From positions 160,001 through 224,000 of the forward strand of contig CM000436.1 of NCBI GenBank assembly GCA_000165345.1: DNA of 64,000 nucleotides, in the 5' to 3' direction. Shown here one piece after another: positions 49,101 to 55,100 of the stretch. Position numbers: made by a program. Each line of letters begins with the position of its first letter. Position 1 is the first letter of the stretch.

Positions 49101-52100
49101 GAGACGCCTTTGGAGAGAGATCTCTAATGTTTGACGAACCAAGGTCTGCAACAGTAATAGCAAATGCAACAACTGAATGTTTAACTTTGAATAGAGGAAT
49201 TCTTACCCAGATTTTAGGTAACTTAGGACAAGTTCTGAGCAAAAACTTAATTCAACAATCTCTACAAAATTCTCCAATATTTAAGCAATTTACAAAAAAT
49301 CAAATGCAAATATTACTTGATAAGATTTCTATTAAGACTTTTCAAAAAGACGTTATTTTGTCTACTGCAGAGACTAAAGCACTTAATATGAGAGCCTTTG
49401 TCATCTTGGAAGGAGAGGTGCAAGTCTCTCTTCCATCAAATTGGCTTTCTAGAAGGGCCAGTAGTTTAACTTCTATGGTTATCGATAAATCTATTGGTTC
49501 TGTCAATAATTACTCACTTTCTGATTACATTAATGTTAACTTAGGAAGAGGAGATTATTTTGGGGATGACTTTGTTTTTCATCCAAAAATTCCATTTGTA
49601 TGCAAGATTGAAATGAAAAGTGAAACTAAAATTGGAGTAATCACATCTTCAATGCTTTCTGAATGCTTTGGGGATGAGAATGTTGATGTTGGACTTGAAA
49701 TTAACAGAAAAAGAGATGCAATCAAGTCGTGCTTTGTCTTCCAATACGTTTCTGAGCAACAACTAAGTCTTTTGGTAAAGTCTTTAAGGCTTGTAAAGTT
49801 TACTAGCGGTGAAAAAATTGTTGTACAAGGTGACAAAGGAACTGCTTTTTTCATTTTACAGTCTGGAGAAGTAGCTGTTTATAGAAATAACAAGTTTATT
49901 CGTTATCTTGGAAAAAATGACTACTTTGGCGAAAGAGCTCTGCTTTATGATGAATTAAGATCTGCTACTATTGAGGCTGCAACCCCTGAGGTGCATCTAT
50001 GGACTGTAGACAAAGAAGCCTTTCTTAAAATTGTTGAACCTCCAATGAGACGATATCTTGATGAAAGAATAAAGCTACAGGAAACCAGAGTGCAAATGAG
50101 TGATTTAAAGATTCTTCAAACAATTGGTAAAGGAACATTTGGAGTCGTTTATATGGTTGAAAATATTAAATCAGGAAATAAATATGCACTTAAGAAAATT
50201 TCCAAGTCACGAATTTTGGCGCTCAATATGCAGGCACATGTAAAATTGGAAAGGTCCATTTTGGCGCTCAATGACCATCCATTTATTATTAAACTTGTTA
50301 GAACATTTAAGGATTCAGAAAATATATATTTGTTGACAGAATTGATTCCTGGAGGAGAGCTATATGATGCATTACAAAGAATTGGTTTATTAACACGGTA
50401 TCAAGCTCAATTTTATATTGGCTCAATTATTCTAGCTCTCGAGTATTTACATGAGAGATCTATTGTATATAGAGATTTGAAGCCTGAAAATATATTACTA
50501 GATTCTCAGGGATATATTAAATTGATTGATTTTGGTTGTGCAAAAAAGATTGCTGGTAGAAGTTATACTTTGGCAGGTACCCCACATTACATGGCTCCAG
50601 AGGTTATTCTTGGAAAGGGATATAACTTAAGTTGTGATGCATGGGCTATTGGAATTTGCTTATATGAGTTTTTATGTGGTTGTCTTCCATTTGGAAACGA
50701 TGCTGTTGACCATTTGGAGATTTTTAAGGATATTTTGACTTCAAAGTTGGTATTTCCAAGACATTTGAATGATGTTGATACTGTTAATATAATAAAGAGA
50801 TTATTATGTAGGGTTCCAGAGGTTAGGATGGGATGTTCAGCTACTGGCTATAAGGAAATCAAGGACAATGTATTTTTTAAGGATTTTAATTTTGATAGGT
50901 TGTTAGGCAGGAGTTATGTTGCTCCATTAGTTAGGAAGTATCGAGTTTTTGCAAAAAATACAGAAAATGAGAATATAGTTGAGAATATTACTGAAGTTAG
51001 TCAGAATGAGGAGGCTTTGAGTCCTAATACCCATAATATTAAGTCCAAGCAGAAAATAAGTTTCAATGCTTCCAAAAATCACTCTGTAAGTACAAGAGGA
51101 AACAAGATGGATGAGTATGATTGGGATATAGAGTTTTAATTTTATATTACTTCATTCTATTCCCTCCATGCTAATCATAAAAGTACTTAAAACCCTTATA
51201 CTATGAAGAACTGAGGAATATCGGAGAGAATGAGGGTAATATCTGCCTAGTTGAGATAAATAGAAATAGGGTATGATAGCAAATATAAATATTAATGATT
51301 TTATAAATTAATATGTAAGTTACATTCTATAAACTAAGTGAGCTAATCTTCGCTATATTTTTTTAAATACCCAAAAGAAAAGAATGTGGCAATTGTAGTT
51401 ACTGTATATTTGGCATTTATATCTTCGTAGTAAGGGAAAAGTAGCTCATAGATGAGTTGTTTGTTAAATGCAGACAAGCAAACAACTGTAAGTGTAAGAA
51501 ATGAAGCAATTACAGATGCCCCACTAAGTCTAAAAACTTCAGTAACTGAAAAATCTCGAAAGCTTATTTGAAATTTAGTAAAGCTAGCAACTTCGTATTC
51601 TTGAGTTGAAGAACTACTCTTTTCAATACATCTTCTAATACTTGAATTATGGTAGAATTTGTTGTTCATAATTCTGATCCAATAGGGCATTCTACAGCGT
51701 TCAGGTCTTACTTTGGACATTCTAGAATTAAAATTCTTCTGTGAAACTACTATTTCATATTCATTTTCTTGTCTCGAAACATAACCTTTAATTATATAAA
51801 AATAGAATTTTTCTACATCAAAAACATAATTTTTGAGCAACTTTAATGAAACCTGAGCGTAATTACCAATGTTAGAATAGAACCAAGAAGGTTCTACAGA
51901 TTCTGCATGCTGATTTGCAATAATCATAGGCTGATCATATATTCCAATCTTTAATATTTCACTAATGGAATAACTTTCCCTAGTATTGTTAGTAATTTGG
52001 GTATTATTCTTAATCATGAATCCATGCTCAGAAGATGAATCTTTATGAGGATTAGTGGAATTTACTGGTTTCAAATATTTGATTCCAATAGATATACTAT

Positions 52101-55100
52101 CTACATCAAATCCATCAAGAGTTGGTCTTTGAAAAAGAAAAAAAGGAGGATTCAAAATAGCATGACTTCTTCTGCTAAAAAATTTCTGATTCCACATATC
52201 AATACACAAACACTGTTCATGATTACTAATACTTTGTTTCTCCCAATAACATTTTCTAATTTTTGGATGAAAACTAAAGTAATTTTTATTCGCATGTTTA
52301 TATATTAAAATAACTTTAAGCCGGTCATTAAGATAAGCATCTAAAATACTATCTTTTTGAGAAACATGGGGGAGGGAGCATATAGTCATTGAAGGAACTT
52401 CTAATCTTGAATATACAGCAATTGTGGTAGAAATATTTGTAAGTTGGCCAGTTTTTAGAAAAATAAAAAAGAAGATAAAGGCCCAGTAGAGACCAAGTAG
52501 TAATAAGGAGGAAATGATGATTAAAGCCACTATTTCAGTCAATTTGGAATTTGGACCCTTCCCAAACGACCCTTTTGGAACTAACAACTCCTTAATAGAG
52601 GTAAGAAAAGAAAGAATCATACCTTCAAATTGTTTTGTTAAGTTAATATAGCTGTCAAAGGTGTTAATAAGTGAACTAAAGCTATAAGTAAATCATCTCA
52701 TTGAAACAGAGCCACAAATCTTCAAGTCCATATACTTTTGTTTTCACCTTCTTGTTCTTTCTGTTCGTATTTCTTTTTTCCTTAGCCTCGTTTTACTATA
52801 ATTATTTTCAACTTTAAGGCAATTATCTTAATTTTAAATTCGGTCAAGCTGCCGCCGGCGCCAAGGTGCACTTTTGCTGTTTGTGGTGTGGGGAGAAAAG
52901 CCGGTTTTAATGGCAAATAGATTAAAAATAAGAGGGAAAATTGGTAAAGTGAAATTAGAAAAAAAAAAAGGAGTAAATTAAAAGAATTTCACTGAAGATT
53001 ATTGAGCCGTGATTAAGCGAAAAAGTGGAGAACTTTTTCGGGTTGTGATTATTGAAATGTATTTTTGTCGGATATAATGAAATCTTTATAAAGATTTTTT
53101 TTAAAAAACAGAAAATAACTTGAAAGGAAGTGAAATCGTGATTACCACGTAGTAATTGAATAGAAGTACATTTTCATAAGAAATTAGTTACTTACATCTG
53201 GGTAATATGGGAGATTTTGAGGAAAATGCAGATTATAGCGATGAGTTATGCATTAAAGCTTTGAATAATTTGAATAGGCCTCCTGAAATAGATGAGCCAT
53301 TTTTAGAATTTTTCAAGCCAAAGCCAAAATTAAGAATAAAGCAGAAGTCAAGAGGTAAATCTTTGGATATTAGCGATGTTCCTAGGGCTTATGGTGTATT
53401 TGGCGAAGAACTGGAACAACCTGGTCCAGACAACATTCAAAAGTCTGTTTCTGCAAGCAGGAGTGAATTAAATACTTTACATGAGGATCATGATACTAGA
53501 AGGTTAAGCAGTGGTATTAATAACATTAGAAGGGTCAGAAGTGAAATGGGGAGATTTAATAAGACAACTGATGGAACGAAGGCAGAGAATTTGCTAAGCA
53601 GTATTTTGATCTTACCAGACCAGTCTGGAAAAAAAGGAGGCTCTAGGACTGAAGTAAGAAAAAGGAAATTGAACAGTAATGCAAGTATAAATTCGTCTAT
53701 AAAAGATGAATTTCTTTCAGTAGCTACTCCTATTTCTCCTTATGTAATTTCTCCAAAAAATAATAATTTTGATTATTCAAGTGGAAATGTCCATAATAAA
53801 AAGCTTACAGAGAAAAATATTGACTTATTAAAGTCTCTGATTGAGATTAAGGAAAAGGAATTGAACAATTTAAACACAACCTATAGTTATGAGAAATCAG
53901 AATTCAAACTTGAAATAATTCGACTTAAGCAAATAATTAAAGAAAGTGAAGAAAGTCACTTGCAATTACAGAAGGAAATTGTGGAAAGGGATGAAGCTTT
54001 AGCAGAATCAAGACGAAACTACGAGAAACTGGAATTAGATTTTGTATCAACAAAGCAGTCATTAGAAATAATGCTTGAAGCGGAGAGGAATGCAAATCAA
54101 CATCTTAGACAAGAATTAAGAGAAAAAAATGCCAATGACTCAAGTTTAGGATACTTTGGTGAAAACGGTATTTTGGAGCTTCAAAACTATAAGCTAAAGT
54201 ATTTTGAGGCAATGAGAAAACTTCAGAGACTAGAAACAGAGATGGTAATAAATAGGAATAAAGGATATAAACTTGAGGAAGATAGAGAATTTGTGAATAA
54301 TGATTCAGTTCCTATTTTTGTAGGCTTACCTGAAAATAGGCAATTTACCTCTGAATATAATCCAGAAAACCTAGGGACAAATTTGGAGGTCTGTTTGAAT
54401 ATTAAGGAAAACTTTGAAGAGATTCGAAGCAATACGGAAATCATCCAGTTGGTTTCAGAAAATTCCTTGTTAGAAGAGAAATTGATAAAATTAAGAGAGG
54501 AGCTTGAAATGGAGAAGAATAAATCGATAGTTGCAAATATAAGACATTTAACTCAAAAGCCAATTTTGATTTCTTCTTGTACTAGTACGCGCCTTTCAAT
54601 GCATGAAATTGAGACTATGGAAGCAAAAGCTACTCAGTATGAACAGAAATATGAGCATACTAGATTAAGATTATGCAGAAATACAATTAGCATTCAGATT
54701 ATATATCCCAAAAATCAACTTAGTATTCAAAAACTTGGTAGCCTTGGAATCCAAATGGATTTAAATTTTGAATCAAAATTAGATAAATCAATTCAAACTC
54801 ATGTGGATGAAAATGTGTGTGCGCATGTAAATACCGGTAATATTACGATTGACATGCAAAATACGCAGAGCGAAGTTACAGTGAATATTGAAAAAATTCA
54901 AGATGAGATAAGGAGCGAGAATGACATTAGTTTGTATGATTTGGCTTTTAAGGATTATAATTTTGTCCCAAAATTGCTCAAAAACTATGCTAAGAATGTA
55001 GATACTCAGACTGAAGATGTTAAAGAATATGTAAACATAAATAAAGAGTTTAATTCTGAGATTAACGGGGTTAGAGTTGAGAATTGTAAAGATAAGCAAA

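Follow-up and report, generated by a model that had tools for sequence, protein, structure and literature searches.

The DNA stretch analysed here, referred to as the window, covers 64,000 nucleotides of contig CM000436.1 (assembly GCA_000165345.1, positions 160,001 to 224,000 of the forward strand), and the gene in question is an intronless open reading frame (ORF) on its minus strand, running from ATG to stop at window positions 51343-52620 and coding for a protein of 425 residues with two transmembrane (TM) segments. As judged from a predicted structure, the best reading is that this protein and its relatives represent a third sequence family of the ASIC/ENaC/PAC fold, equipped with a minimal, PAC-like ectodomain. 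In that case the gene would encode a subunit of a trimeric ion channel of this structural class—two TM helices with a β-core ectodomain in between—a reading to which a probability of roughly 0.55 can be given, and the protein modelled in this way is probably a gated ion channel. An earlier note, made from the DNA sequence alone, had proposed a DEG/ENaC-like channel at this locus; the idea holds at the level of the fold, whereas membership in the DEG/ENaC (ASC) family in its strict sense fails on the sequence tests. The alternative wording of the note—a distant relative or a convergent two-TM protein—came close to this outcome, the membership in DEG/ENaC being unproven.

The key evidence is one model, of moderate confidence, of one member of the family, predicted by AlphaFold2 (AF2) run without templates. 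It is based on a multiple sequence alignment (MSA) of 20 sequences, eight distant relatives having been added to the 12 orthologs that underlay a poor first model; with these distant homologues, the predicted local distance difference test score (pLDDT) rose from 47.7 to a mean of 62.6, which supports the reading given above. The predicted template modelling score (pTM) amounted to 0.55, the core strands reached pLDDT values of 80-88, and 122 residues stayed below 50. The modelled chain consists of a helix (residues 23-57), strands within residues 72-82, about a dozen more strands, the strand 341-356 and the helix 366-391, i.e. about 12-14 strands are present and the ectodomain contains only three short helices.

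Compared with known structures, the model has only DEG/ENaC/ASIC/FaNaC and PAC/TMEM206 channels as its neighbours. In the Foldseek search against the full PDB (350,542 chains), all 25 matches at E<=1e-3 belonged to the ASIC/ENaC/PAC class, the ranks 1-12 being occupied by PAC/ASOR (E 6.9e-7 to 1e-4, probability 0.99-1.00), followed by ASIC1, ENaC, BRTNaC1 and PDPNaC1; a second structure-comparison algorithm, applied to 48,164 chains, returned nothing but this class, clearly set off in score. The values in the structure-neighbour table were 10.7 for PDPNaC1, 9.8 for ENaC-γ, 9.6 for both BRTNaC1 and ENaC-β, 9.5 for PAC (240/278 residues aligned), 9.4 for ENaC-α, 9.2 for both ENaC-δ and a second PAC chain, 9.1 for FaNaC, 8.8 for ASIC1 and 8.6 for ASIC5. 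The ENaC matches align 156-188 residues at 4.6-5.2 Å, and since several of them (6wth) are, by their titles, entries of the extracellular domain, the match does not come from the long TM helices alone. The structure-based identity to the animal channels is 8-17%. As seen from the model, the structural distance to PAC/TMEM206 is the same as that to DEG/ENaC or smaller. Concerning P2X receptors, which are also known from protists, they share with the window protein two TMs, a large cysteine-containing ectodomain and—if the latter protein indeed forms trimers—the trimeric assembly; a P2X-like fold was nevertheless rejected, the best Foldseek match, P2X7, being found only at rank 35 (probability 0.16), with no Pfam match to that family.

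It should be pointed out that the core common to ASIC, ENaC and PAC is a 12-stranded β-domain between two TM helices, to which PAC adds a simple insertion only, and that PAC/TMEM206 is without detectable sequence homology to ENaC (PMC7904269). Both the β-core of the palm/β-ball type between TM1 and TM2, as expected of DEG/ENaC, and the 12-stranded β-domain with two TMs and a simple helical insertion, as described for PAC in the same study, were recognised in the model. With PAC/TMEM206/ASOR (PDB 7ji3, 7jna, 8fbl) the window protein has in common the two TMs around a mostly β ectodomain, the short helical insertions, a similar size and a post-TM1 segment, H-P-V-M-S-V-S, that resembles its own V-P-S-M-T-I-C, the last likeness not being statistically supported; it differs in the absence of detectable sequence homology, in the conserved boxes, in its two long variable inserts, in having no conserved counterpart of the PAC selectivity lysine and in its range, which is myzozoan and not vertebrate. 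With DEG/ENaC/ASIC it shares a strand running straight into TM2, and hhalign aligns its post-TM1 box to FPAVTLCN, although not significantly; it is also similar in length to the short centipede members PDPNaC1 (9jf7; PMC12714832) and BRTNaC1 (8ymr; PMC9974506), both within 421-431 residues; the differences from these channels comprise, in addition to the low identity, the lack of a PF00858 match, of a conserved GxS belt, of the HG motif (F-G being found instead) and of a helical thumb or finger, with only four cysteines conserved in the ectodomain. A proline-initiated alternating segment shortly behind TM1 was seen in all three families, at residues 96-105 of human PAC, 86-93 of ASIC1 (F-P-A-V-T-L-C) and 74-81 of the window protein; possibly it marks the strand β1 structurally, which is not statistically supported.

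With regard to the source of the stretch, the impression of an apicomplexan-like genome proved right: gene calls give the identical 425-residue product for two chromosome-level NCBI assemblies of Cryptosporidium, GCA_048859185.1 (CM109968.1) and GCA_031892065.1 (CP029787.1), in both of them on a 1.34-Mb chromosome, and the closest named homologues are Cryptosporidium proteins. Within the genus, 11 orthologs exhibit 45-98% identity to the window protein (C. tyzzeri 98%, C. ubiquitum 86%, C. canis 81%, C. felis 65%, C. ryanae and C. bovis 62%, C. muris and C. serpentis 45%); in databases they are named only as hypothetical, secreted, transmembrane or "signal peptide" proteins, and none of them carries a Pfam domain. 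An hmmsearch over 1.84 billion cluster representatives yielded just 10 proteins at E<=1e-3. As identified by exact look-up, they include proteins of the chromerid alga Vitrella brassicaformis (CEM30974.1), the archigregarine Filipodium phascolosomae and the blastogregarine Siedleckia nematoides, a 544-residue paralog, XP_067201159.1, of Cryptosporidium sp. chipmunk genotype I and members from four Logan assemblies. Repeating the homologue search with a broadened profile brought no new members among the matches listed. Based on these searches, the family is found so far only in Cryptosporidium, gregarines and the chromerid Vitrella. A recent horizontal transfer from animals to the parasite, a horizontal origin having been one of the suggestions of the earlier note, was rejected in view of the distribution of the family over four myzozoan lineages and of the low structure-based identity to the animal channels. 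The chipmunk-genotype sequence represents a second, highly divergent Cryptosporidium paralog (~25% identity) with much longer inserts, so that heteromeric assemblies, as in ENaC, would be possible. The Vitrella protein aligns well from the cysteine box to the C-terminus, its TM1 and β1 box being unconvincing; C81 is replaced there and the spacing between the counterparts of F19 and P76 is 38 instead of 58, an N-terminal oddity for which the wrong prediction of an exon is the probable cause.

The two-TM topology anticipated from the DNA sequence was borne out, since two hydrophobic helices are present in 12/12 Cryptosporidium sequences, i.e. the window protein and its 11 orthologs, with no consistent third one by the Kyte-Doolittle scale. 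In the window protein, the two 19-residue windows cover residues 30-48 (score 2.48) and 367-385 (1.99), in agreement with the two AF2 helices, and the loop between TM1 and TM2 counts ~310 residues, so that the arrangement of two TM helices and a large loop is that of DEG/ENaC. As for the orientation, the net charge of +3 of residues 1-27 is consistent with a cytosolic N-terminus, and together with the five N-x-S/T sequons of the loop it suggests that both termini are cytosolic and that a glycosylated β-domain faces the outside or a lumen. Four cysteines are conserved in the ectodomain—C124, C137 and C139 in 17/17 full-length members and C81 in 16/17—which suggests two disulfides and fits an extracellular or luminal loop.

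Throughout the family a rigid core is conserved; it includes the four ectodomain cysteines and is interrupted at two sites by variable inserts. The strongest conservation is seen in the pre-TM1 box, TM1, β1, β12, TM2 and the FP motif behind TM2, where β12 denotes the pre-TM2 strand of residues 341-365, the counterpart of the strand β12 in the ASIC/ENaC/PAC core. Among nine diverse members, F19 and G20 (pre-TM1), P76 (β1), N386 (end of TM2), F395 and P396 (post-TM2) are invariant, and P15, G17, A32, G58, E74, S77, C81, F357 and E361 are nearly so, each of E74, S77 and C81 being retained in 8/9 of them. F19 and P76 are spaced by 58 residues in almost every member, F354 and N386 by 33, and all the length variation is confined to the two inserts, located between C139 and K224 (30-180 residues) and between W246 and F354 (76-173 residues). 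Within the genus, the identity is 67-93% in TM1, β1, β12 and TM2, which matches the best ectodomain segment, and far lower in loop A (29-63%) and loop C (21-24%). For passive membrane anchors, such a conservation pattern of the TM and juxtamembrane segments, as read from the alignment, is unusual. It counts in favour of the channel reading, as do the fixed spacings, the pairing of the β1 box with FPAVTLCN by hhalign and the detection of the family in four lineages.

The two motifs that had suggested a DEG/ENaC channel fared differently. The box VPSMTICSL (residues 75-83), positioned ~20 residues past TM1 and likened to the FPAVTIC motif of ENaC and ASIC, is conserved across the family, and its functional importance is indicated by this conservation; hhalign indeed pairs it with FPAVTLCN, but the match, at 0.4-0.8% probability, is not above chance as a sequence match to ASIC/ENaC. 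When the family is compared with FPAVT(I/L/V)CN, the signature L-E-x-P-S-x-x-x-C is found at the equivalent place, the F, T and N are not conserved and the alignment is not statistically significant. The G-A-S triplet within FRLSGASVIASFLTLTVV (residues 363-380), taken for a selectivity filter at the entrance of TM2, has to be abandoned in this role: C. muris and C. serpentis have SSA in its place and the distant members GVS, HRM, GSF, NKH or SQY, and it lies in the first turn of TM2, not in the middle of the helix as in ASIC.

A number of results weigh against the assignment to the ASIC/ENaC/PAC class. At E<=10, hmmscan of the window protein against Pfam-A detected zero families, including PF00858, TMEM206 and P2X, and the profile of the 12 orthologs found no match among all PDB sequences. 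The comparison of the family with ASIC/ENaC by hhalign gave at most 0.8% probability (E 0.07-0.14; 12-34 columns around the β1 box), and that with PAC scored 15.3, under the reversed-sequence controls of 17.8-18.2. The DEG/ENaC pore motifs GxS and HG and the cysteine-rich thumb are absent from the family: the invariant pair F19-G20 is embedded in P-x-G-x-F-G without a histidine, and in place of the about 14 conserved cysteines and the helical thumb and finger of the ASIC ectodomain there are only the four conserved cysteines and the three short helices of the model. The test for a polar or small-residue helical face of TM2 was not significant (p=0.20), and for this reason no pore-lining role is claimed for it. 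On the structural side, the Foldseek search with the first model returned noise, mostly T-cell receptor chains and other unrelated structures, that model having been discarded; the second model, as given above, is only moderately confident and rests on a 20-sequence MSA; its Foldseek TM-scores are low (0.17-0.41) and the global root-mean-square deviation is high, the low scores being due to the TM helices and disordered inserts, which are not superposable. Moreover, AF2 has been trained on ASIC structures and may therefore be biased to the ASIC fold for a β-rich protein with two TMs.

The remaining sequence searches point in the same direction. An NCBIfam search and a PDB phmmer search with the window protein gave nothing relevant, the family profiles A1 and A4 retrieved from the PDB only noise (PilA, E 0.52; PBP1A, E 2), and the family consensus matched neither ASC nor TMEM206 in Pfam. 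When 16 members of the broadened alignment were scanned, a single ASC match appeared, in the member P0012 (E 0.054; 13 bits against the PF00858 gathering score of 23.6 bits), spanning TM1 and the post-TM1 box (model positions 26-98); it was rejected as evidence because it concerns just 1/16 members and because the unrelated families Sod_Fe_C (0.024) and SipL (0.078) are at the same level. For hhalign, the ASIC/ENaC reference consisted of human ASIC1a and ENaC-α (full-length PDB matches of 1244 and 1599 bits, respectively) with ASIC1 orthologs and was narrow (number of effective sequences about 2), the PAC reference consisting of human PAC (100% identical to 7jna_A) and bovine PAC. Against the former, a single 12-column segment was aligned, with RLEVPSMTICSL opposite QLTFPAVTLCNL (probability 0.4%, E 0.14), further runs reaching 0.8% and a score of 22.6 versus 17.2-17.4 for the reversed-sequence controls. 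Permissive settings produced a collinear alignment of TM1 with TM1, β1 with β1, the pre-TM2 strand with β12, where it stands opposite LDIFFEVLNYETIEQ of ASIC, and TM2 with TM2, which is not significant. By these tests, the window protein is not a sequence-level member of either the ASC (PF00858) or the TMEM206 family. The failure of hhalign does not contradict the fold, since such shallow profiles miss even the established structural relationship between ASC and PAC (14.7 versus a control of 15.1).

Among the other explanations, the one that the structural match is a prediction artefact, and that an unrelated, lineage-specific two-TM protein has in truth a different fold, is unlikely, although the most probable of them. 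The modest pLDDT with its 122 poorly predicted residues, the shallow MSA, the first model without such matches and the uniformly negative sequence tests would all agree with it. Against it stand the two algorithms, which picked no other class of fold from 48,164 and 350,542 chains and did so at a clear distance in score, the confidence that increased upon adding evolutionary information and the mapping of the conserved boxes on β1, β12 and the TMs, the functionally central elements of the fold; hhalign, as mentioned, is equally blind to the accepted ASC-PAC relationship. The fold could also be genuine and the protein no channel at all, i.e. a two-TM receptor, adhesin or scaffold at the surface or in an organelle that binds via its β-domain. 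Neither conserved charged nor GxS-type pore residues are present, the polar face of TM2 is not significant, the variable, glycosylated inserts look like antigenic loops exposed at the surface and the orthologs are named only "secreted", "signal peptide" or "transmembrane protein"; but all solved structural neighbours are trimeric ion channels, and TM1, TM2 and the cytosolic juxtamembrane boxes belong to the most conserved parts, so that this possibility is regarded as quite improbable.

Two further explanations accept the channel and assign it to one of the known families, and both of them appear rather improbable, to an equal degree. If the protein were a true but extremely divergent DEG/ENaC member, sharing ancestry with the animal ASIC/ENaC and conducting cations, the β1 box of the FPAVTxC type would be the last sequence trace of it. 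In line with this, the post-TM1 box is the sole segment aligned by hhalign, with a score slightly over the controls, the one sub-threshold match to ASC in Pfam lies on TM1 and that box, the permissive alignment is collinear in four elements and homologues are known in heterokonts and Tunicaraptor (PMC10507113); the PF00858 threshold is, however, missed by all 16 members scanned, the hhalign probability does not exceed 0.8%, GxS is not conserved, the HG motif and the cysteine-rich thumb or finger are lacking and PAC precedes every DEG/ENaC structure in Foldseek. The latter ranking belongs to the arguments for a PAC/TMEM206-like channel with a minimal ectodomain, possibly an acid-activated anion channel of a gut parasite, as do the nearly all-β ectodomain with short helical insertions, seen also in PAC (PMC7904269), and the length of 425 residues, closer to PAC (350 residues) than to ASIC or ENaC. 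In the Cryptosporidium sequences, K387 at the cytosolic end of TM2, reminiscent of the PAC selectivity lysine, is another one; in the distant members, however, it is replaced by Y or N. Also against this assignment, PAC is, as far as known, a vertebrate-centred family, and neither a Pfam TMEM206 match nor an hhalign score above the controls was obtained.

Under the favoured reading of a third family of the ASIC/ENaC/PAC fold, the subunits would trimerise, with both termini in the cytosol and the glycosylated, disulfide-bonded β-domain directed outward or into a lumen. The ectodomain would sense a stimulus—pH, an ion or a small ligand, or force—that would move the lower parts of the strands β1 and β12, these would pull on TM1 and TM2, and the central pore would open in the iris-like fashion that is known from ASIC and has been suggested for PAC (PMC7904269). 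At its cytosolic end, the permeation path may involve the invariant N386 and perhaps also the pre-TM1 box P-x-G-x-F-G. In ASIC, the pre-TM1 HG forms a re-entrant loop, to which this box might be analogous, although not homologous.

In a BLAST survey (Prole and Taylor), C. parvum, C. hominis, C. muris and other pathogenic protozoa were examined and found without DEG/ENaC genes (PMC3681921). ENaC, ASIC, degenerin and amiloride are never mentioned in a review on the ion channels of protozoa from 2022 (PMC9799330), and the broadest recent DEG/ENaC phylogeny contains non-metazoan homologues only from heterokonts and Tunicaraptor; apart from these few heterokont and filasterean-related sequences, the channels are regarded as essentially metazoan (PMC10507113). 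Neither a prior report of the present two-TM family nor a paper joining TMEM206 with Apicomplexa was found in the literature searched. To our knowledge, PAC has not been reported outside animals. What is new is thus the sequence family and its phyletic range, the fold and the architecture being already known; going by the model, parasites reported to be without DEG/ENaC probably have a distant version of such channels. If this is true, the origin of the trimeric two-TM β-core architecture would be pushed much deeper, the alternative being a striking convergence, and the family would be a clean example of one unseen by Pfam and by comparison of hidden Markov models, yet recognisable by structure prediction. 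The channel repertoire of Cryptosporidium is very reduced, and there is no fully effective treatment against the parasite; an outward-facing, parasite-specific channel present throughout the genus would be a candidate for sensing the cues of excystation or invasion and might be a target for drugs. A more far-reaching version, somewhat short of even odds and offered tentatively, would place the protein at the base of an ancient family of trimeric two-TM β-core channels, the third one beside DEG/ENaC and PAC and native to Myzozoa (chromerids, gregarines and Cryptosporidium), with a fold that predates animals and already existed in early eukaryotes and with the Cryptosporidium channel acting as a sensor at the gut lumen or host interface (for pH, ions, bile or osmotic conditions) and as a parasite-specific drug target at the surface.

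Table 1 Features of the two-TM gene and its product in the window
Feature	Window positions	Strand	Remarks
Complete intronless coding sequence, 425 residues + stop	51343..52620	-	First member, here, of an unannotated two-TM family of Myzozoa
Pre-TM1 box LLVPKGSFG (probably cytosolic), residues 12-20	52561..52587	-	F19 and G20 invariant family-wide, P15 and G17 nearly so
TM1, residues 28-57	52450..52539	-	Hydropathy peak 2.48; AF2 helix 23-57; 71-89% identity within genus
Post-TM1 strand β1 box RLEVPSMTICSL, residues 72-83	52372..52407	-	Signature L-E-x-P-S-x-x-x-C; modelled strands 72-74 and 77-82
Cysteine box C124 ... C137-x-C139-I-D-x-W143, ectodomain β-core	52192..52251	-	Cysteine conservation
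Variable low-complexity insert 1, residues 186-221	51958..52065	-	pLDDT 31-32; sequons N187, N205, N211
Conserved β-core segment, residues 222-295, with KIGIYD and EPSWF boxes	51736..51957	-	61-87% identity within genus; AF2 strands 222-228, 245-250, 254-268 and 282-295, pLDDT up to 85
Variable insert 2, residues 296-340	51601..51735	-	Mostly missing in C. muris and C. serpentis; 21-24% identity
Pre-TM2 strand, residues 341-365, with box F354-R-D-F-S-V-T-E-V-F-R364	51526..51600	-	AF2 strand 341-356
TM2, residues 366-391, with N386	51448..51525	-	Hydropathy; AF2 helix 366-391
G367-A368-S369 triplet	51514..51522	-	First turn of TM2; not family-conserved
C-terminal tail (probably cytosolic), residues 392-425, with F395-P396	51346..51447	-	F395-P396 invariant

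Concerning the locus itself, no other copy of the family is present in the window, where tblastn matched only the two-TM gene. An ORF of 87 residues lies antisense to the gene at 52045-52308 and is considered a by-product of the AT-rich sequence. In both NCBI assemblies, the neighbours are a cGMP-dependent protein kinase (PKG), a prefoldin, a CCCH zinc-finger protein and a class-I Glu/Gln-tRNA synthetase. The PKG gene, located at window positions 48185-51139 on the plus strand, is convergent with the two-TM gene and separated by 204 bp from its 3' end; the product contains three cNMP_binding stretches and a Pkinase domain, and its start is given as TTG by the mechanical ORF (984 residues) and as an internal ATG by the gene callers (965 residues). 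On the other side, 587 bp upstream and divergently transcribed, the plus-strand gene at 53207-56794 encodes a protein of 1195 residues in conserved synteny, which has zero Pfam matches, is uncharacterised in Cryptosporidium and looks rich in coiled-coil and low-complexity sequence. Just past the prefoldin in the NCBI assemblies there is a gene with a match to PF17175 (MOLO1; L001, 11868-13278, minus strand), expected near positions 45,300-46,750 of the window. In Caenorhabditis elegans, MOLO-1 serves a ligand-gated channel as an auxiliary subunit, and the vicinity of a gene of this type to the two-TM gene is probably a coincidence. Finally, a run of exactly 10,000 N occupies the window positions 17984-27983, i.e. 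an assembly gap or a masked stretch, for which composition tools give a GC content of 0.

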